Shown here in pieces: positions 4,692-55,158 of a stretch of DNA of 61,993 nt (position 1 is its first letter; every line of letters begins with the position of its first letter). The notes under the pieces were generated by a model. That model ran no database searches, was not told the origin of the DNA, and saw nothing but the letters and a program-made list of their open reading frames with translations. A program made the position numbers and the translations under genes. The DNA lies in contig CAIQJL010000092.1 of the NCBI GenBank assembly GCA_903872185.1, forward strand, positions 1 to 61,993. Direction: 5' to 3'. This DNA is from an uncultured Bacteroidota bacterium. GTDB taxonomy: Bacteria > Bacteroidota > Bacteroidia > Bacteroidales > GWA2-32-17.

Positions 4692-5924
4692 CTAATATTC
4701 TTTTTTGTTTTTTATATCATTATTCAGAACTATTCTTTTTTGATTTTTATAAGCAACAACAAAAGCATCTTTATAAGGAGTTGTTATTGAAATAATTCTT
4801 CTGGCTTCATTTGCTGCTTTGAATGAAAAATATTCACCTACCATATATTTAGAAAATCCTGCTTGATCTTTTTTATCTTCAAATAAAGGATATAGACCAT
4901 TAAATTCTTTAACGTTAACTGTTTTCCTAAAGGCACCTACCTGAACTTTAAAAACGACTCTGTTTTCCATATTGTTAAATGACTTGATTTCTGCAGGCTT
5001 AGCCTGATTTAATGTGTCTTCTGCTATATTTTTGTCAACTTTTGCAAATTTAATAGCATTTGTATCTAAAGAATTGTTTTTTATCATCTCTGTTGATTTG
5101 ATATCATTAACATTCTCAATTATATTTTTTTTGGCTAATTCTTCCTTATTATTAAGACTATTATTTTGCACATTATTGTCGCTTAACTGAGTGCTAGTTT
5201 CTGAATTGCTATCATTTTGAATATTATAATATAAATAATACAACTGTTCAAATTTTATTATCGCCTCTCTTTGATAAAATGTTGCTCTTTTTAAATATTC
5301 TAACTCTTCTTTATATTCTAAATCAATATTATCATTATCCTTTATTTTTATGGCTTTTGCGAATGACTCTTTTGCTTGTTTTACTATATTATTTATTTGC
5401 TGCTTTTTGTTAATCTCAATTTTTTCGATATCAGAAATTGAAGGAACATGATTCTCATAAATATTAAATAAGAGACTATTACCAATTTGATACAATTCTT
5501 CAGCATCATATTTATAAGTTATTTCGCTATTTTCTTTTCTAACAATTTTCTTATACGACTTTAACTTACTAGATTGATCTTCCGAGGAATTAATCATTTT
5601 CTGAGTTTCTGCAACTATCTCCTCATGAACTATTTCAGCCTCTTTTAAGCCATCTAAAGCTTCACTAAACGATTTCTTTATCTCAATTATTAGATTTTTC
5701 TCGTTAGTCTCTAAATTCATTTTTTGTGAAATTTTTTCAAATTTCTCAAGGCAAGTAGATTGTTCATCTATATTACTTTCAGATATATTTATTGGAATTC
5801 CTACTGAGGTCTTTTTAATAGATTTTAACGACTGTGAAAAACAGTAAAAATTAGAAATAAAAAGTACAAATATTAAGATAAAAAATTTATTATACTTTTG
5901 GCTTTTTAAAACAATTTGCTTCAT
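4692..5924 (-). CDS. Exported coiled-coil protein with a C-terminal SPOR-like domain (paralog B)
   Basis: Same layout as 3184..4293; C-terminal FKVQVGAF...EDKKDQ...KYMVGEYFSFKAA...DAFVVAYKN. Confidence 0.7.
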   Translation of the reverse strand: MKQIVLKSQKYNKFFILIFVLFISNFYCFSQSLKSIKKTSVGIPINISESNIDEQSTCLEKFEKISQKMNLETNEKNLIIEIKKSFSEALDGLKEAEIVHEEIVAETQKMINSSEDQSSKLKSYKKIVRKENSEITYKYDAEELYQIGNSLLFNIYENHVPSISDIEKIEINKKQQINNIVKQAKESFAKAIKIKDNDNIDLEYKEELEYLKRATFYQREAIIKFEQLYYLYYNIQNDSNSETSTQLSDNNVQNNSLNNKEELAKKNIIENVNDIKSTEMIKNNSLDTNAIKFAKVDKNIAEDTLNQAKPAEIKSFNNMENRVVFKVQVGAFRKTVNVKEFNGLYPLFEDKKDQAGFSKYMVGEYFSFKAANEARRIISITTPYKDAFVVAYKNQKRIVLNNDIKNKKEY

Positions 5925-6144
5925 AAATATTTGATTTGAAAATTATGTAAAATTAATCACTTTACTATTTGAATACAAGAGAAATAACACCTATAAAATT
6001 TTTAGTGTTTTACCTTAAATAATTATAGGTGTTTGCATAAATGTTTTAATTAACCTTACTTTTATAAAATAAAAAATACATTTAATTTAACACTCCAAAA
6101 ATACATTATCTTATATTAATCAGTACATTACTAAAATTTTATAA

Positions 6145-6948
6145 ATGGAATTGTTTTACAGAAAAATAGGCATAAGCGGACCACCATTAATTATTCTTCA
6201 TGGTTTATATGGTTCGTCGGATAATTGGATTTCTGTTGCAAAACTTCTTGAAAACCATTTTGAGATTTTTTTAATTGATCAACGTAATCATGGAAAGTCA
6301 CCACACTCAAATGATTTTAACTATGAACTTTTAAGTAATGACCTATTTGAATTTTTTGCTAAACACAATATTGTAAAAGCATCTATAATCGGGCACTCTA
6401 TGGGTGGGAAAGCTGCAATGTTTTTTGCTAAAAAATATCCCGAATTAATAAACTCATTACTTATTATAGACATTGCTCCAAAAAATTATCAAAACATTTA
6501 TAGCCCCGAACTTGTAACACATAACAAAATTATTGAAACTTTACTTTCAATAAACTTAAATGAGCTAAAAAGTCGCGAACAAGCCGACGAAGAAATGGCA
6601 AAAAATATTGATTCAATAAAACTAAGATCTTTTCTACTTAAAAACCTACATCGAAATAAAAACGGAAATTTTGAATGGTTATTAAATTTAAAATCTATCT
6701 CAGAAAACTTTAACAATATTGCAGATGGATTCGAAAAAATTGAATGGGAAAATATAGAAATTTCGGGATTTCCTGTGCTATTTGTTAAAGGAGAAAATTC
6801 TAAATATATTTTAGATGAAGATTTGCTATTAATTAATAAACTTTTTCCAGCAACTGAAATATTTGAACTATCTAACACAGGACATTGGCTTCATGCAGAA
6901 AAACCGAATGATCTTGCAGATAAAATTATTTCTTTTATTTTAAATTAA
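6145..6948 (+). CDS. ybfF: Alpha/beta-fold hydrolase, YbfF esterase-like
   Basis: LHGLYGSSDNW, DQRNHGKS, nucleophile elbow GHSMGGK, catalytic His in GHWLHAE. Confidence 0.88.
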   Translation: MELFYRKIGISGPPLIILHGLYGSSDNWISVAKLLENHFEIFLIDQRNHGKSPHSNDFNYELLSNDLFEFFAKHNIVKASIIGHSMGGKAAMFFAKKYPELINSLLIIDIAPKNYQNIYSPELVTHNKIIETLLSINLNELKSREQADEEMAKNIDSIKLRSFLLKNLHRNKNGNFEWLLNLKSISENFNNIADGFEKIEWENIEISGFPVLFVKGENSKYILDEDLLLINKLFPATEIFELSNTGHWLHAEKPNDLADKIISFILN

Positions 6949-7655
6949 GCGTGCTCTATATTTTCATCTAAAAGAAGAGGTTCACCTTTATATCTCAATA
7001 AAAGTTGAGCTAAAGCTAAAACATCTTTTTCGCAATATTTCACAATTCTTGGCAAGTCTTTTTCTACATAATAAACTCTTGCAACATCGGCGCCCGAAAT
7101 ATCATCTTTAGGAGTAGGAATATCAAAAATAGCAGTTAACAAATTTAACGATGTATAATGTTTATAATCGCCAAACTTCCATAATTCAAGTGTATCTAAA
7201 TGCTTTATTTCCCATGGTTTTTTGCCAGAATTATCTAAAATTTTGGGTAGTTTAAGTCCATTAATTAAACCCCTTCTTGCTATATAAGGATAATCGAATT
7301 CTTTACCATTATGAGCACAAAGAATATGATCGTTAGAATTAAAATGAGAAACCAGCATTTGAAAAAATTCCTCTAGCAACTTCTTTTCATCATCTCCAGA
7401 AAAAGATTTAAGTCTAATTTTCTTATCACCTTTTTCAGAAATAACACCAACAGAGATACAAATTATTTTACCAAACTCTGCAAAAATTCCTGCACGTTCA
7501 TATACCTCATCAGAAGATTTTTCATCACGAAAAGTTTTTGCTTTATCGTCCCAAAGTTTTTGAAATTTATTTGAAACATCAGAATAAGTTGGAAACTGAG
7601 GTACTGTTTCTATATCAAGAAACAAAATATTTGAGATTCTAATTTCATCAAGCAT
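6945..7655 (-). CDS. PolB-like 3'-5' exonuclease (DEDD)
   Basis: FLDIETVP (ExoI), HNGKEFDYP (ExoII), YCEKDV (ExoIII). Confidence 0.85.
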   Translation of the reverse strand: MLDEIRISNILFLDIETVPQFPTYSDVSNKFQKLWDDKAKTFRDEKSSDEVYERAGIFAEFGKIICISVGVISEKGDKKIRLKSFSGDDEKKLLEEFFQMLVSHFNSNDHILCAHNGKEFDYPYIARRGLINGLKLPKILDNSGKKPWEIKHLDTLELWKFGDYKHYTSLNLLTAIFDIPTPKDDISGADVARVYYVEKDLPRIVKYCEKDVLALAQLLLRYKGEPLLLDENIEHA

Positions 7656-8274
7656 GGCCTGTTGTTTTATTTAGTTTTCTTTCAATAAAATGCGTTAAAA
7701 TATCAATTGCAACTAAATTATCGCCTCCTTGAGGGACAATTAAATCGGCAAAAGATTTTGTAGGTTCAATAAACTGAATATGTGATGGCTTTACAGTTTT
7801 AATATATCTTTCTAATACTTTATCTACTGATCTTCCTCTTTCAATTATATCACGTTTAATAACCCTAATAAGCCTGTCGTCAGCATCAGCATCAACAAAG
7901 ACTTTGATGTCACAAATATTGCGCAATTTAGGATTTGTGAAAATTAATATCCCTTCAACAATCACAACTTTTTTAGGCTGAACAGGAATAAATTCAGAAG
8001 AACGGGTACATGTTAAATAAGAATATATAGGCATTGGAATTGTCTCGCCTTTCTTTAAACGACTAATATGATCAACAAGTAAATCAAATTCAACTGCATT
8101 TGGATGATCGAAATTAATTTCCAACCTTTCATCCATTGGCATTTTACTATTATCTCTGTAATACGCATCCTGGGGCATAACAACAACTTCATCTTTTGGA
8201 CAACGCTCAATAATTTTTTTAACAACTGTTGTCTTTCCCGAGCCAGTTCCGCCAGCAATGCCTATAATTAACAT
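7648..8274 (-). CDS. udk: Uridine kinase
   Basis: IGIAGGTGSGKTT, QDAYY, NFDHP, EGILI, FIEPTK. Confidence 0.95.
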   Translation of the reverse strand: MLIIGIAGGTGSGKTTVVKKIIERCPKDEVVVMPQDAYYRDNSKMPMDERLEINFDHPNAVEFDLLVDHISRLKKGETIPMPIYSYLTCTRSSEFIPVQPKKVVIVEGILIFTNPKLRNICDIKVFVDADADDRLIRVIKRDIIERGRSVDKVLERYIKTVKPSHIQFIEPTKSFADLIVPQGGDNLVAIDILTHFIERKLNKTTGHA

Positions 8275-8429
8275 ATTATAAATTTTACCACAATATATGA
8301 AGTTGTTTTATATTCTAAAAATTTTTTTAATCTCTTTTTAACATCTTTATTTAGTTTTTTATTAGCAGGCTGCCTATTTGTGAATTATCCAAAAAATTCA
8401 TTAGATTTGCTTTACTAATTCCCTGTAAT

Positions 8430-9500
8430 ATGAAAAACATTTTATTCTTTTTAATTTTTACAGTTGCAATATTTTCATGTAAAAAAGACAAACCAGAGCC
8501 TGCACCAACTATTCCAAATAGCGCAAATGCCTTAATCACTTTTTCAATTCCAGGCCAGTTATCTTCAGTTATTAGCCCAGGTGCACATACTGTAGTTATT
8601 ACTATGCCTTTTGATGTTAAACTTGACAGTCTTGTTGCTGCAAATTTCACCATTCCATCAGGAGCTACAATAAAAATTGGAACCATACCTCAAACAAGTG
8701 ACGTAACTTTAAATAATTTTATTTCTCCCATTACTTATACTATTACTGCAGAAAACGGAACAGCAATACAAGATTGGACTATTACTGCCGATTATGAAAC
8801 GTATTCATATTTATTAGAAGATTTTCCTACAACAAATGAATCATTCTATATGGAAATTGATAGTACTAATTTACAAGGATATTCACTTGAAACTCCTGGT
8901 AAAGGTAAAATTTGGAGTTTTTTAGGGCTAGGTATTGAAGCAACGGATACTTTAGATTTTCTTTCACCTTCTGCTCATCCTGCAGGCTCACAATTTCCAA
9001 GCGCATCAGTAGTTGTAAAAGATCATAGTTCCTCTTTTGATATGTTTGCTTCAAATTCAAGCACTAAATCAGAGCTAATTGGAATGTATGGTTCTGTAAA
9101 TGGAATGCTTATTTCTGTTCCAACAACAAATCGTTTAACCACGTTAAAATTTCCATCAGAGTTTGGTGTAAATTTTATTGATGACGGTGCTTTGCAAAAA
9201 GACACATCTATAACATATTCAGGATTTCCTGTTACTGTATCATTACAGGTTGATATTAATACTGAGAGTAATATTGATGCTAATGGAATTGTAAAAACAC
9301 CCATTGGAATTTTTAAATGTGTTCGCGAACATAATGTACAAATAAGACATACTCAGGTATTAGTTGCAGGTGCTTCATACCTGGATCAATCTGACACAAC
9401 CCGCACTTATAATTATTACAACAAAGAAAAAGGTTATCCTGTTATTATTGTAGAGGTTGATGCTTCAGAAAACATTAAAAAAATTAAACATCAAAAATAA
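8430..9500 (+). CDS. Lipoprotein with an N-terminal Ig-like (DUF5018-type) domain
   Basis: Lipobox IFSC-KKD; motif F..PITYTITAENG; function unknown. Confidence 0.6.
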   Translation: MKNILFFLIFTVAIFSCKKDKPEPAPTIPNSANALITFSIPGQLSSVISPGAHTVVITMPFDVKLDSLVAANFTIPSGATIKIGTIPQTSDVTLNNFISPITYTITAENGTAIQDWTITADYETYSYLLEDFPTTNESFYMEIDSTNLQGYSLETPGKGKIWSFLGLGIEATDTLDFLSPSAHPAGSQFPSASVVVKDHSSSFDMFASNSSTKSELIGMYGSVNGMLISVPTTNRLTTLKFPSEFGVNFIDDGALQKDTSITYSGFPVTVSLQVDINTESNIDANGIVKTPIGIFKCVREHNVQIRHTQVLVAGASYLDQSDTTRTYNYYNKEKGYPVIIVEVDASENIKKIKHQK

Positions 9501-25701: not shown

Positions 25702-26313
25702 ATGGAAAATATGGAATTTAAATCATCGCCCGAAATACAGGAAAAACTTTCAACTTATGGAACAGTTAAAGCATTTAGCGAAGGTGATATTATTTTAAAT
25801 GAGAACGCATACATAAACGTAATACCTATTGTTATAAAGGGAAGTATTAAAGTTCTTCGCACTGATGAAGATGGGCGTGAAATTTTACTTTATTATATAA
25901 AATCTGGAGAAAGTTGTATAATGTCGATTTTTGGAGGAATTCACAATGATACCAGCAAAGTAAAAGTTGTTGCCGAAGAGGAAACAGAAATTTTATTTAT
26001 TCCAATTGATAAAGTTAGCTTGCTTATTAAGGACTATCCTGAATGGGTTGATTATATTTTCAGATTATACCATAAACGATTTGAAGAATTACTGGAAGTA
26101 GTAAATGCAGTTGCATTTAAAAAAATGGACGAAAGGCTACTAAACTTACTTCAAAAAAAATGTGAGTTGGCAAATAATAAAACTATTTCAGTCACTCATG
26201 ATCAACTTTCAAATGAGCTAGGAACCGCAAGAGTAGTAGTGTCCCGACTACTTAAGCAAATGGAAAACGAAAATCTTGTACTGCTAGGTAGAAATAAAAT
26301 TACCCTTATGTAA
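25702..26313 (+). CDS. Crp/Fnr family transcriptional regulator
   Basis: cNMP-binding-like N-terminus (LYYIKSGESCIMS); HTH THDQLSNELGTARVVVSRLLK; no FNR-type N-terminal Cys cluster. Confidence 0.92.
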   Translation: MENMEFKSSPEIQEKLSTYGTVKAFSEGDIILNENAYINVIPIVIKGSIKVLRTDEDGREILLYYIKSGESCIMSIFGGIHNDTSKVKVVAEEETEILFIPIDKVSLLIKDYPEWVDYIFRLYHKRFEELLEVVNAVAFKKMDERLLNLLQKKCELANNKTISVTHDQLSNELGTARVVVSRLLKQMENENLVLLGRNKITLM

Positions 26314-48754: not shown

Positions 48755-48907
48755 TTTTCTTATAATTAAATTATGAAACAAAGATAATGCTTATTTAGAC
48801 TAATTCCAAATAATATTAATATTATTTAACTATTTTTTAAAATTATATGGTTGTACCTTAAACCAAAAAGGTGTAATTTAGCTTATTCCCAATTCGATCA
48901 AGATATA

Positions 48908-50293
48908 ATGAAAGAGTCAGATTACTCAACTAAAATACAAGAGCTTGAAAAAGCAATTGCCGATTTATATAAAGAGAATCGTGAGTTGCTAAAACGTAAT
49001 CTGGAGCTTATTGAACAAAACCGAAATTTAGATGAAGGTTTAGAAAGGTTAAATTCTAAAATGAATCTTGAATCGGCAGATAAAAAAAGCATACGTTACA
49101 AAATGGCAACTGTATTTTTTGCTGATATTAAAGGGTTTTCAAAACTTGCAGAACAACAAAATGCTGAATTATTAATTGATGAACTTGATAGATTCTTTTT
49201 AATGTTAGACGAAATTATAGCTAGTCATAATATTGAAAAGATAAGTTCAATTGGCGATACTTTAATGTGTGCTGGTGGTATTCCTAAGAAAAACAGAACT
49301 AACCCAATTGAGATGGTGCTTGCAGCAATTAAAATTAACGACAAATTAAAAGAATTTCAAAAAGAGCTTTTTGGTGAAGATAAAGTAATTTGGGAAATTT
49401 CGATGGGTATTCATACAGGACCTGTAGTTGCTGCTGAACAAGGTAAAAAGAAAATCACTTATGAACTAAAAGGTGAAACTGTAAATATTGCAAGCAGAAT
49501 TGAATCTGCAAGCGAGCCAGGTAAAATTATTATTTCTGAAATGACACGTGAATTAATTTCAGAATTTTTTAGATGCAGTTATATTGGAAAAATTCCAGTA
49601 AAATATGTTGGCGATATAAATCTATATCAGGTAAAAGGATTTACACCAAAATATTCAGTTGATAAAAACGGTCTATTACCAAATAAAAAATTCCAGGTTA
49701 AATTTCAACTTATAAAATTTGATGATCTTGAAGAGTACATGTTAGATAAAATGGAGCGTGAATTACCAAAATATTTACATTATCACAATCTTAAACATAC
49801 CATTGATGTTGGAATTCAGGCAGAAATAATTGGACAAGGCGAAGGAATTTCAGATGAAGAAATGTTGTTATTAAAAACTGCTGCTTTATTTCATGATTCT
49901 GGTCAAACAATACAAACCCGCGACCACGAACTTATTGGAACAAGAATAGCCTCATCTATACTTCCAAAATTTGGTTATTCCAGCGAACAAATTGCAGAAA
50001 TTCAGCAAATAATAATGGCAACCAAGCTACCTCCACAACCAAAGACTCTACTACAAAAAATAATTTGCGATGCAGACTTAGATTATCTGGGCAGAAGCGA
50101 TTTTATTCCAGTATCAAATATGCTTTATAAAGAACTTCACGAACAGAATCTTATTAATTCTATTAATGACTGGAACAAATTGCAGATTAAATTTCTAACA
50201 CCTCATCAATATTTTACAGAAACCGCAAACAAATTACGCGAAGTAAATAAGCAAACTCAGATAGAGAGGCTTAAAAATGAAATTATTGATTAA
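48908..50293 (+). CDS. Coiled-coil / class III nucleotide cyclase / HD-domain fusion
   Basis: FADIKGF, IGDT, GIHTGPVV, NIASRIES; HD domain YHNLKHT, ALFHDSG, DADL. ATG 48908 preferred over TTG 48851. Confidence 0.88.
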   Translation: MKESDYSTKIQELEKAIADLYKENRELLKRNLELIEQNRNLDEGLERLNSKMNLESADKKSIRYKMATVFFADIKGFSKLAEQQNAELLIDELDRFFLMLDEIIASHNIEKISSIGDTLMCAGGIPKKNRTNPIEMVLAAIKINDKLKEFQKELFGEDKVIWEISMGIHTGPVVAAEQGKKKITYELKGETVNIASRIESASEPGKIIISEMTRELISEFFRCSYIGKIPVKYVGDINLYQVKGFTPKYSVDKNGLLPNKKFQVKFQLIKFDDLEEYMLDKMERELPKYLHYHNLKHTIDVGIQAEIIGQGEGISDEEMLLLKTAALFHDSGQTIQTRDHELIGTRIASSILPKFGYSSEQIAEIQQIIMATKLPPQPKTLLQKIICDADLDYLGRSDFIPVSNMLYKELHEQNLINSINDWNKLQIKFLTPHQYFTETANKLREVNKQTQIERLKNEIID

Positions 50294-51213
50294 TCTGCAA
50301 TAAATTTTTCTATAACAAATTGTATTTTTTCATCATTTGGCACTTCAGAATTTATCCAATTTATTGTAGTCCCTTTCTTTTCCATGCTTCTAAAATATGT
50401 CATTTGCCGTTTTGCAAACTGATGAATTGCAATTTCTAATTTTGAAAAGAATTCTTTAAAAGAATATTTTCCGGTTAAATATTCAGTAATATACTTATAT
50501 TCTAAACCATAATAGACTAATTGTTCTGCTCTTAATCCTTGTGATAACAATGTTTGCACTTCTTCAATTAATCCTTCTTTAAGTCTAATGTTAAGACGAT
50601 TTGTTATTCTTTTTCTTCTTAATTCTCTTTCACAATCAATCCCTATTATTAGGCTATTTAGTTTTGGATATTCTTTTTCTACAATATTATTATTTAAATA
50701 ATACTCTTCTATTTCTATTGCTCGAATAGCTCTTTTAACTGTATCACCATCACTTCTGTTATGAAGTCTTTTATATTTTTTTAGAACATCGCTCAATTCC
50801 ATTAGATTTTTATTCTCTAGTTCTTTTCTTAAATCTAAATTAACAGGAACATCAATTAATTTATATCCTTTTAAAGCAGCATCAATGTATAAACCGGTTC
50901 CACCACAAAGAACTGGAAAACCTTTATTAGATTTAATTGTTTCAAGCGCTTTCAAAAAATCACGTTGAAATTCAAAAACGTTATACTGATATCCTGCATC
51001 AACAATATCAATTAAATGACTAGGTATAATAACCTTTTCAATCTCATAATCTTTAATATCTTTGCCTGTGCCAATATCCATGCCCCTATATACTTGCCTG
51101 GAATCTGCACTAATTATTTCACCTTTAATTCTTCGACTTAACTCAACAGCAAAGCGAGTCTTACCGCTTGCAGTAGGTCCAAGTATTGTTACTATATTAT
51201 ATTTAGAAGTCAT
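50290..51213 (-). CDS. miaA: tRNA dimethylallyltransferase
   Basis: GPTASGKT, ISADSRQVYRGMDIGTGKD, GGTGLY, FAKRQMTYFR. Confidence 0.93.
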   Translation of the reverse strand: MTSKYNIVTILGPTASGKTRFAVELSRRIKGEIISADSRQVYRGMDIGTGKDIKDYEIEKVIIPSHLIDIVDAGYQYNVFEFQRDFLKALETIKSNKGFPVLCGGTGLYIDAALKGYKLIDVPVNLDLRKELENKNLMELSDVLKKYKRLHNRSDGDTVKRAIRAIEIEEYYLNNNIVEKEYPKLNSLIIGIDCERELRRKRITNRLNIRLKEGLIEEVQTLLSQGLRAEQLVYYGLEYKYITEYLTGKYSFKEFFSKLEIAIHQFAKRQMTYFRSMEKKGTTINWINSEVPNDEKIQFVIEKFIAD

Positions 51214-53787: not shown

Positions 53788-55158
53788 TTATTGATACCAT
53801 TTCTGATTAGCAATCATAATTGCTTCCTGAACTGTTATTCTGGTACCATTATTATATGCAGAAACAAAAGCATCACGAATTGGAGTAGTTTCCCATATTT
53901 TCACTCTATGATCACGGGCATCTTTGTACTCGGCATGCGAACCAATAATATATTTATTTAAACCATCATTAACTTCTATTGCAACATCTTCAGACACCTG
54001 CATTTTCTTGAAATATGAAGTCTTTAGATTATTACGATAAGCTCCAATTTGTACTTTATAATTTACACCCTTTTCTGGTTCTACAATTATTTGATTATTT
54101 ACAATCTGATTATTGTTATTATTTTGATTGTTTTGATTATTAATTTGGTTATTGTTCTGATTGTTGGTTTGATTCTTTATTGTATCAATTTGATTATTAT
54201 GATTTTGATTGTTATTTGTATTGTTGTTATTTAAATTATTTTGATTACTGTTCTGATTATTTTGATTGTTAGTATTATTCGCCAATATACTAGAATTCAA
54301 GAACTCTTTATTCTCAATAGTTTTTATTTTAGTTCCTTCATTTTCAATATATGATAACGAACCTGAAATATCTGGTATTCCAGATGACGGAGTATTTGAA
54401 GACAGTTTATAGCTTATTTGAAATTGATTATCTGGAGGAAGAGACATCCAAAGAAATTTCACAGTATTATCTTTAAATGAAAAGATTCCATCTTTGCTTT
54501 CAATATTTGTTGCAGTAAATTCGCTTGGTATTTTTTCCTGAATTTTAGCAAATTTATCTTTTGATAAGTTTGCAGTATTTATTAAAAGATGAACTGTTAT
54601 CCCATCTATATCGCGTATGATTTGACGATAACAAAATATTTCATTAGCTTGAAAATTCTGAGTTACAGTATTATTTACAACTTGTTTTGAACTATCAGGA
54701 TTTGTGTTTTGATTATTATTTGCAAGAGCCCCTTGAGATTTAATAATTACTGTTTTGCTAGAAATTGCCATAGTTTTACGTTCGTTATCATAGATATAAC
54801 TAAAATCGCCACCTAAAACTAAAGGGCCTTCTGCTGTGGGGTCAACCAGAATGTTATATGTTATTGTAAAAGTACTATCTGAAGGAAGTTTTAACCAAAT
54901 TATTTTAACTTTTTGATCTTTAAAAGTAAAATCTCCATTAAAAGAATTTAATTGTGTTGCAGTATAACCAATTGGCAAATCTTGCTGATAACGTGCAAAA
55001 CTTGCTAAATCAGTTTTAGAAATCTTTAATTCAACAGTAAAACTTGTTCCAGGAACAACTTCATCAGGTGCATTTACTGTAACCGCTACGTCACCTAAAA
55101 ATAAATTAACGAGCAGAAAACCAATAAAATTCAGAAGTAGAATAAGATACTTAATCAT
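53788..55158 (-). CDS. Exported protein: two Ig-like repeats, an Asn/Gln-rich linker and a C-terminal SPOR-like domain
   Basis: Internal repeat F.FKD..VK..W..LP; YKVQIGAY...DAFVSAYNNG. Confidence 0.7.
   Translation of the reverse strand: MIKYLILLLNFIGFLLVNLFLGDVAVTVNAPDEVVPGTSFTVELKISKTDLASFARYQQDLPIGYTATQLNSFNGDFTFKDQKVKIIWLKLPSDSTFTITYNILVDPTAEGPLVLGGDFSYIYDNERKTMAISSKTVIIKSQGALANNNQNTNPDSSKQVVNNTVTQNFQANEIFCYRQIIRDIDGITVHLLINTANLSKDKFAKIQEKIPSEFTATNIESKDGIFSFKDNTVKFLWMSLPPDNQFQISYKLSSNTPSSGIPDISGSLSYIENEGTKIKTIENKEFLNSSILANNTNNQNNQNSNQNNLNNNNTNNNQNHNNQIDTIKNQTNNQNNNQINNQNNQNNNNNQIVNNQIIVEPEKGVNYKVQIGAYRNNLKTSYFKKMQVSEDVAIEVNDGLNKYIIGSHAEYKDARDHRVKIWETTPIRDAFVSAYNNGTRITVQEAIMIANQKWYQ
54091..54279 (-). 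repeat. Low-complexity AAT/CAA coding repeat (Asn/Gln tract)
   Basis: 63 codons, of which 37 encode Asn and 12 Gln (hand count). Confidence 0.9.

Follow-up and report, generated by a model that had tools for sequence, protein, structure and literature searches.

The gene described here lies on a 61,993-nt contig (CAIQJL010000092.1, assembly GCA_903872185.1) from an uncultured Bacteroidota bacterium of the Bacteroidales lineage GWA2-32-17, and we refer to the whole of this stretch as the window. The gene is complete, occupies positions 48908..50293 on the forward (+) strand and encodes a 461-amino-acid protein, terminated by a TAA stop codon, that combines an N-terminal coiled coil, a class III cyclase-homology domain and an HD phosphohydrolase domain. 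The open reading frame (ORF) spans 48851..50293 (+) if counted from a TTG codon; we place the start at the ATG at 48908 because homologues measure 454–470 amino acids. Residues 3–56 (48914..49075, +) form one helix in the full-length AlphaFold2 (AF2) model, with a heptad pattern whose a/d positions are Leu, Ile and Asn, and this coiled coil is presumed to be a dimerization helix. The cyclase-homology domain (residues 63–245; 49094..49642, +), delimited by Pfam, by alignments to AC8 and AC9 in the PDB and by its codons, belongs to PF00211 (Guanylate_cyc; residues 63–243, 124.9 bits against a cut-off of 21.9) and finds AC8, AC9 and CyaB among PDB entries. A linker (residues 246–284; 49643..49759, +), helical at residues 260–285 in the AF2 model, joins it to the HD domain (residues 285–458; 49760..50281, +), which matches Pfam HD (PF01966; residues 295–390, 33.5 bits, cut-off 22) and is YpgQ/YedJ-like by profile, AF2 and Foldseek comparison. 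The whole-chain model (predicted local distance difference test (pLDDT) 85.9; predicted template modelling score (pTM) 0.73) resolves into the helix at 3–56, a cyclase fold at 62–245 and an all-helical C-terminal domain at 260–458. No transmembrane segment was found, the maximum Kyte–Doolittle 19-residue mean over the whole protein being 1.0, and the gene product is a soluble protein without a sensor or membrane part. The original prediction, made by a model from the sequence of the window, had described a complete HD domain and an N-terminal coiled coil without a transmembrane segment; the Pfam match with the full motif set, the AF2 helix and the hydropathy profile agree with both descriptions.

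The cyclase domain is a mixture of retained and replaced catalytic residues. Reading the codons directly, we find both metal-binding aspartates, D73 in FADIKG and D117 in IGD, the transition-state N-x3-R residues N193 and R197 (NIASR) and K232 (KYVG). The codons also bear out the substitutions that the original prediction had singled out: Ser113 (AGT; 49244..49246, +) occupies the position of the adenine-specifying Lys in KISSIGD, and E186-L187-K188 (49463..49471, +) gives YELKG where the canonical sequence is YDIWG. A further replacement had been overlooked. Ser165 (TCG; 49400..49402, +), in ISMGIHTG, takes the place of the Arg of the RxGxHxG motif, at a position that aligns with Arg in AC8 and AC9, C1 and C2 alike; this is the phosphate-binding Arg, which we take to contact the triphosphate in mammalian cyclase structures. 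L119 (canonically Tyr) and S114 (canonically Thr) are additional departures. The pair S113/E186 corresponds neither to the Lys/Asp (or Lys/Thr) pair of ATP-using enzymes nor to the Glu/Cys pair that selects GTP, and a guanylate cyclase was rejected for want of a Glu/Cys pair. Two other differences, AEQG and KYVG, were correctly read from the sequence and carry little weight because the intervening residues vary family-wide while the conserved Gly179, Lys232 and Gly235 between which they fall are all kept.

This is one member of a large and conserved family that is experimentally uncharacterized. A word-indexed search returned thousands of matches, the best 120 of which (56–95% identity) all contain cyclase and HD domains and come from genomes and metagenomes of Bacteroidia/Bacteroidales. 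An exhaustive search of 50%-identity representatives gave more than 150 clusters matching residues of roughly 20–460, that is, a cyclase and HD module of about 400 amino acids; most of these clusters measure 1,150–1,310 amino acids and a minority 450–530 amino acids. We denote these the long and short forms. Common to both is the module of cyclase, linker and HD domain, the linker being conserved in the long paralogues as well, with D273 and E283 invariant among short forms. The long forms differ in having an N-terminal sensor, a transmembrane segment, a ‘NILP’ transducer helix, a near-invariant D-K-D-D-W-N-R-K cyclase signature and an HD domain that is often degenerate, whereas the short form has a coiled coil only, a Trp188Lys change, relaxed catalytic positions and an invariant HD domain. 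In a tree of 189 modules, the short Lys188 proteins form a single clade (support 99) that lies within the long sensor-fused forms; they are therefore a derived, sensor-less offshoot of receptor-type cyclase–HD proteins. Cultivable carriers of a short form include Marinifilum breve and Perlabentimonas gracilis. Trp188Lys is the hallmark of this clade: it requires a single W-to-K change on the tree, and K188 is present in 120/121 close homologues. The long forms are annotated only as ‘adenylate/guanylate cyclase domain-containing protein’, and literature searches for a characterized bacterial cyclase–HD fusion found nothing relevant.

Both forms occur in the genome that carries the window. Its long paralogue (1,287 amino acids; G000:C53:4704-8240) has a propeller/Y_Y_Y-type sensor, a transmembrane segment, a canonical adenylate cyclase domain and an intact HD domain, and is 52% identical to the protein described here over residues 21–458 and 57% identical over the HD domain. 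Its cyclase motifs are canonical (KIKTIGD, IRIGVHTG and YDIWGDTVNIASR), and at the NILP cyclase-transducer motif it reads LIANILPKDTAEEL, where the short protein reads LIEQNRNLDEGLERL and the motif is missing.

Comparison of the two forms revealed opposite patterns of conservation in the two catalytic halves. Among long forms, the signature D73-K113-D117-D186-W188-N193-R197-K232 is canonical in 127/136 sequences (Lys at position 113 in 100%, Asp at 186 in 99% and Arg at 165 in 97%), and the HD motif is broken in roughly 49/143, for example as HYLFFEDRE in place of HHHDHEDDD. In the short clade, the HD motif is intact in all of 81 species-level genomes and, with one exception, in the 46 tree rows. 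We contrasted the forms without picking columns beforehand, asking which are near-invariant in long forms and variable in short ones. The columns so identified are D73, D101, I112, K113, T114, Y119, R165 (T, S, N or A in the short clade in this contrast), D186, V192 and G227, which are the metal, base and phosphate positions together with residues right beside them. The reverse contrast (invariant in short forms, variable in long ones) fell almost wholly on the linker and HD domain, with two columns in the cyclase domain, E215 and P230. Averaged over columns, entropy in the cyclase domain is 1.52 in short forms versus 1.46–1.59 in long ones, and in the HD domain 1.05 versus 1.79–2.09; the cyclase domain is therefore kept as a domain with its catalytic positions unprotected, and the HD domain is now the protected part. 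At the level of sequence conservation, the lineages thus show reciprocal decay, of the maker in the short forms and of the breaker in the long ones. A large clade of sensor–cyclase–HD proteins of about 1,200 amino acids (P0165–P0266) has a perfect cyclase signature and HD metal ligands that are gone. By their sequences, such long-form domains are pseudo-HD domains kept behind a presumably active cyclase.

How far the substitutions of this protein extend was determined from residue counts in the 81 species-level short-form genomes, together with the minimum number of state changes on the tree of those sequences. Position 73 is Asp in 52 species, Asn in 13, Tyr in 7, Glu in 5, Ser in 3 and His in 1; Asp has been lost in 29/81, with at least 11 changes. 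The basic residue at position 165 (Lys in 32 species, Arg in 27, Ser in 10 and Thr in 7, with others in the remainder) is missing in 22/81, which takes at least 8 changes. In 13/81, Asp186 is altered (Asp in 68 species, Glu in 12 and Ser in 1), with at least 10 changes. Position 113 is Lys in 69 species, Arg in 9 and Ser in 3; a non-basic residue arose there by one change, that to Ser113 in the shallow lineage of the protein described here (3/81 species). Position 188 is Lys in 73 species and Trp in 8, and the N-x3-R residues hardly vary (Asn193 in 79/81 and Arg197 in 81/81). The combination Asp73-Ser113-Asp117-Glu186 (D-S-D-E) is not private drift because it is common to 38/121 close homologue clusters; that these substitutions might be unique to one sequence does not hold, yet they reach only the 3/81 species just mentioned. 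Its conservation within that lineage says little because the lineage is 65–95% identical overall. Orthologues of 50–60% identity bear the canonical Lys/Asp pair, and a relative from the same order (43% identity) has Thr73, Phe186 and an intact HD domain. D-S-D-E is not a family-wide alternative code, and the pattern is better read as that expected for relaxation, not retuned specificity.

In the HD half, by contrast with the relaxed cyclase site, the motifs read from the codons are H293, H297, H329-D330, H340-E341 and D388-A-D390-L-D392-YLGR. The metal-binding H...HD...D pattern is thus present as H297, H329-D330 and D388, with H293, H340, D390 and D392 in addition, and all of these are invariant in 81/81 species. 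Along its full length the domain can be aligned with 2pq7, the DAD-LD-xG motif and the C-terminal TETA motif included. When a profile built from 15 members of the family was run against the PDB, it matched 2pq7 (8.7e-7), YedJ (3gw7; 1.9e-5), 3dto (7.8e-4) and YpgQ (5dqv; 8.1e-3), and then weakly PDE9 and trypanosome PDEB1. The AF2 model of the HD domain by itself (pLDDT 87.9) gave the same neighbours in Foldseek: the top nine hits all belong to the YpgQ/YedJ group (2pq7, YpgQ, 3b57, 3djb, 2qgs and 3dto; TM-scores 0.49–0.69, with 0.55–0.69 for the first five), and class I phosphodiesterases (PDEs) come next at lower coverage (PDE5, PDE2 and PDE4; TMq ~0.6, TMt ~0.4). The group shares a compact, all-helical HD fold of about 200 residues with H..H, HD and DAD-LD-xG motifs; its members differ in being stand-alone proteins of only 17–23% identity to the domain described here, which is cyclase-fused and has additional invariant residues (H340-E341, D390, D392, Y393 and R396). 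Two other assignments were rejected. The domain is not a class I PDE (PF00233), as it gave no match at E ≤ 0.1 and is about 130 residues shorter than the roughly 330-residue PDE fold; 9/15 family members match PF00233 weakly, with a best E of 0.0024. Nor is it an HD-GYP domain: the alignment with PmGH (4mcw; E 0.017) covers no more than 46 residues around the HD motif, and HD-GYP structures rank low in Foldseek. Similarity to both groups is marginal, and they serve here as analogies.

Homology by itself does not fix the substrate. YpgQ is a Mn-dependent pyrophosphohydrolase of (deoxy)nucleoside triphosphates ((d)NTPs) (PMC8177086), whereas two YpgQ-like plant proteins, AtCN-PDE1 and BdPDE1, are reported to be PDEs of cyclic nucleoside monophosphates (cNMPs) that act on cGMP/cAMP (PMC6692503, PMC8431786). 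For BdPDE1, 3DTO served as the modelling template (PMC6692503, PMC8431786), and the profile of the family HD domain matches this entry too. Through this model and the published descriptions, the plant enzymes fall in the same HD subfamily neighbourhood; they differ from the protein described here in being eukaryotic and free of a cyclase fusion.

The genomic setting links this HD domain to cyclases and, by elimination, to cyclic AMP (cAMP) turnover. The genome of the window (4.3 Mb, estimated to be 100% complete) encodes five class III cyclase domains and ten cNMP-binding proteins, and two copies only of this HD domain. One cNMP-binding domain (48 bits; 25768-26034, +) lies in the window itself, in a 211-amino-acid ORF that is probably a Crp/Fnr-type regulator and counts among the ten. 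The best match to CpdA in the genome reaches 19 bits, the cut-off being 225, with a model that is an equivalog of the E. coli type and that a divergent metallophosphoesterase PDE could escape. No class II PDE was detected, and a PF00233 search of the genome gave no match, control genomes being equally silent. With many cyclases and cNMP receptors and neither CpdA nor a class II PDE detected, the HD domain is therefore the best candidate for degrading the cell's cAMP.

The same link appears outside the fusion. Close HD homologues (36–46% identity) also occur as stand-alone genes of about 200 amino acids that adjoin canonical TPR–transmembrane–cyclase genes: at one locus (L036) the HD gene (6053-6667, −) follows the cyclase gene (6885-8831, −) on the same strand, and at another (L037) the HD gene (7314-7895, +) is divergent from the cyclase gene (5264-7237, −), 77 bp apart. 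In a Bacteroidota sample, a class III cyclase is present in 27/29 genomes with a close HD homologue (E ≤ ~4e-30) versus 180/301 in the background, the 301 genomes not being phylogenetically independent and several of the 29 being fusions. We limited the comparison to close homologues because a threshold of E ≤ 1e-12 draws in a distant HD subfamily of about 400 amino acids from cyclase-free genomes. Of 24 short-form genomes, 22 of which have no acidic residue at position 73, 23 also encode a canonical, higher-scoring cyclase of about 190 bits, mostly in an ORF of about 1,100–1,260 amino acids.

These data are consistent with the protein being an HD hydrolase, probably of cAMP, with a regulatory, weak or pseudo-cyclase domain, a reading to which we give an even chance. 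The short form derives from receptor-type adenylate cyclase–HD proteins and has shed their sensor and membrane region. Its coiled coil would dimerize the cyclase-like domains, and the dimer pocket, lined by D117, N193, R197 and K232, probably still binds a nucleotide (ATP or cAMP). Three residues found in a competent adenylate cyclase, namely the Lys, the Asp and the Arg that binds phosphate, are missing from this pocket, and its cyclase activity would be weak or absent. The HD domains would break down the cAMP that the cell's receptor-type cyclases make, and occupancy of the pseudo-cyclase pocket may tune their activity. Thus far the original prediction is confirmed in its observation and partly supported in its interpretation. 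Of the two roles it offered, a pseudo-cyclase regulating the HD domain is the better fit, with the HD domain invariant in 81/81 species and the relaxed positions falling on catalytic residues, although this protein may keep residual cyclase activity.

Several points weigh against an HD hydrolase of cAMP with a relaxed cyclase partner. Fold and sequence similarity of the HD domain to class I PDEs is weak, and the argument by elimination carries the limit of the CpdA model given above. YpgQ, the sole biochemically defined bacterial relative of the HD domain, is a Mn-dependent (d)NTP pyrophosphohydrolase and not a cNMP phosphodiesterase (PMC8177086). Literature searches found no enzymology for any member of the family. 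A distant HD branch (27–33% identity), at the C terminus of proteins of about 400 amino acids, occurs in genomes without a detectable class III cyclase (G022, G027, G051, G055, G063, G095, G111 and G123), and the wider HD family therefore has cyclase-independent roles. Some close HD relatives carry an N-terminal fusion to a YitT-like (DUF2179-type) multi-pass membrane protein, in ORFs of 493–499 amino acids (L017, G143:C11; L018, G001:C45). Because of these fusions and of the distant relatives in cyclase-free genomes, the HD family is not exclusively tied to cAMP, and the fusions suggest the YitT-like protein as a second functional partner besides cyclases. On the cyclase side, both metal aspartates, the Asn/Arg pair and Lys232 are intact in this protein, and it could still cyclize a nucleotide with residual activity because the metal aspartates and the Asn/Arg pair remain. 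Non-canonical class III cyclases such as mycobacterial Rv1900c (Asn/Asp) and Rv0386 (Gln/Asn) are reportedly active, and class IIIb cyclases with Thr at the substrate position are active.

The last of these points lead to an alternative in which both halves work: a bifunctional enzyme that makes cAMP despite Ser113, Glu186 and Ser165 and degrades it through the HD domain, giving a self-limiting or pulsed signal. D73, D117, N193, R197 and K232 are all kept, the overall conservation of the cyclase domain equals that of the long forms, Glu186 is a conservative swap for Asp, and in about 40% of species-level orthologues position 73 is still acidic, position 165 still basic and the Lys/Asp pair in place. 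There is also a precedent in Marchantia CAPE (PMC5159850, PMC11032487). In Marchantia and other streptophytes, CAPE carries class III cyclase and PDE functions on one chain (PMC5159850, PMC8115329, PMC11032487), and it resembles the present protein in joining a class III cyclase to a cAMP-degrading HD-superfamily domain in a single polypeptide; it differs in that its PDE is of class I and N-terminal to the cyclase, with both domains reported active, whereas the present protein has a YpgQ-like HD domain at its C terminus and a relaxed cyclase site. Against a bifunctional enzyme, the phosphate-binding Arg and the adenine Lys are both Ser, the first metal Asp has been lost time and again in the clade (29/81 species), the Pfam cyclase score lies about 60 bits below those of the other cyclases of the genome (127 versus 162–192 bits) and short forms are almost never a genome's sole cyclase. 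We consider such an enzyme rather unlikely. The alternative favoured by the original prediction, that Ser113, Glu186 and Lys188 select CTP, UTP or another NTP and that the HD domain degrades the resulting messenger, draws on the absence of both the Lys/Asp and the Glu/Cys pair, on PycC model matches of up to 60.6 bits and on the retention of D-S-D-E within the lineage (38/121 close clusters). A new specificity should give a new conserved signature, and because none appears a non-canonical cyclic nucleotide is unsupported: the D-S-D-E combination is found only in a single shallow lineage (3/81 species, one change) that is 65–95% identical overall, sister lineages carry Lys/Asp, Asp73 and Arg165 have been lost repeatedly across the clade in what looks like relaxation, the PycC scores fall below the generic Pfam cyclase score, and no Pycsar-type effector adjoins the gene, the neighbours of 80 homologues being housekeeping genes. 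We hold this retuning to be very improbable.

Two further alternatives assign the HD domain another substrate or the cyclase-like domain another partner. The HD domain may act not on cyclic nucleotides but as an NTP/dNTP pyrophosphohydrolase, or on (p)ppGpp, Ap4A or 2′,3′-cNMP, with the cyclase-like domain as a sensor or scaffold only. Its best relatives (2pq7, YpgQ, YedJ, 3b57, 3djb and 2qgs), the YitT-like fusions, the distant relatives in cyclase-free genomes and the (d)NTP pyrophosphohydrolase activity of YpgQ (PMC8177086) all point this way. Opposed to it are the persistent fusion to canonical adenylate cyclases, or adjacency to them when stand-alone, the co-occurrence with cyclases, the lack of a detected CpdA or class II PDE in a genome that encodes many cyclases and cNMP receptors, and the plant YpgQ-like proteins reported as cNMP PDEs (PMC8431786, PMC6692503). 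On this evidence an HD domain unconnected with cyclic nucleotides seems improbable. The other alternative is a heterodimer with a long canonical cyclase, like mammalian C1/C2, in which one active and one regulatory pocket would form and an active HD domain would be brought to the receptor cyclase. In the mammalian C1/C2 division of labour, the residues equivalent to Asp73 and Arg165 are dispensable in one subunit; a genome with a short form almost always has a long form too (23/24), and in 19/80 loci a gene for a long-form cyclase follows about 3 kb downstream. The protein's own N-terminal coiled coil, however, favours homodimers, the losses are inconsistent (this protein has lost the ‘C2-type’ Lys and Asp, others the ‘C1-type’ Asp) and the window contains no operon link. 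We hold a heterodimer to be very improbable.

If the HD hydrolase with a relaxed cyclase-like domain is taken to the level of the family, the YpgQ-like HD domain would be an unrecognized class of bacterial cAMP PDE, and the family would have split into receptor cyclases with a silent HD domain and soluble PDEs, this protein among them, gated by a pseudo-cyclase domain that senses ATP or cAMP; we regard this generalization as plausible, at somewhat less than an even chance. cAMP signalling in Bacteroidota is almost unstudied despite many class III cyclases and cNMP-binding proteins. Were the generalization true, YpgQ-like HD domains would supply the ‘missing’ PDE in organisms with many such cyclases and receptors and no CpdA, would fill the degradation step of the Bacteroidota cAMP pathway and would bring a new enzyme class, the YpgQ-type HD domain, into bacterial cAMP turnover. 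The family would then also be a natural experiment in the specialization of maker–breaker fusions, the long forms keeping the maker and the short forms the breaker, and its split would parallel those of RelA/SpoT and GGDEF–EAL proteins. As analogues we take GGDEF–EAL proteins with a degenerate, GTP-sensing GGDEF domain, such as Caulobacter PdeA, and long RelA/SpoT homologues, among which RelA has a dead HD hydrolase domain. In each, maker and breaker share one chain, and different lineages keep one half catalytic and let the other degenerate to a regulatory or nucleotide-binding role; the folds and messengers (c-di-GMP and (p)ppGpp) differ, and the cyclase–HD pattern is known from sequence conservation alone. 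A relaxed cyclase-like domain with a regulatory role explains the Ser/Glu/Lys residues better than a new cyclic nucleotide would, and the part worth experiment is the family-level reciprocal decay together with the candidate new class of cAMP phosphodiesterase.

The gene stands alone in the window. The genes upstream, small lipoprotein-like ORFs and sodA, are divergent, downstream is a convergent miaA (50290..51213, −), and queG is also nearby. The stop codon overlaps the 3′ end of miaA by four bases (50290-50293), which leaves no room for separate terminators. Clustering of the flanking ORFs of 80 homologue loci (L040–L119) gave no conserved operon partner, only lineage-specific synteny with housekeeping genes (recO-like, uvrB, a deoxynucleoside kinase and RdgB-like). 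A tandem universal-stress-protein gene is found upstream, in opposite orientation, in 13/80 loci, and in the 19/80 loci mentioned above the downstream long-form sensor cyclase gene is on the same strand; neither arrangement is present in this window.

A role in Pycsar-type defence was considered from the same neighbourhoods. PycC shares a class III-like cyclase fold with this family, and the PycC models of PADLOC match the protein weakly, at best with 60.6 bits versus 124.9 for the generic PF00211, and so do not mark it as a PycC. No Pycsar effector gene (transmembrane or TIR) is adjacent here or conserved in the 80 loci. This reading was rejected on the weak matches and the lack of a nearby effector; the family differs from PycC in being vertically conserved, in housekeeping neighbourhoods.

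Two minor observations concern other genes. In one genome (G083), the stand-alone HD gene at 7314-7895 of locus L037 is followed 8 bp on by a separate YitT-like gene (7903-8775). Within the window, a 456-amino-acid ORF at 53788-55158 (−) encodes two similar N-terminal repeats, a long Asn/Gln-rich low-complexity stretch and then a C-terminal domain.

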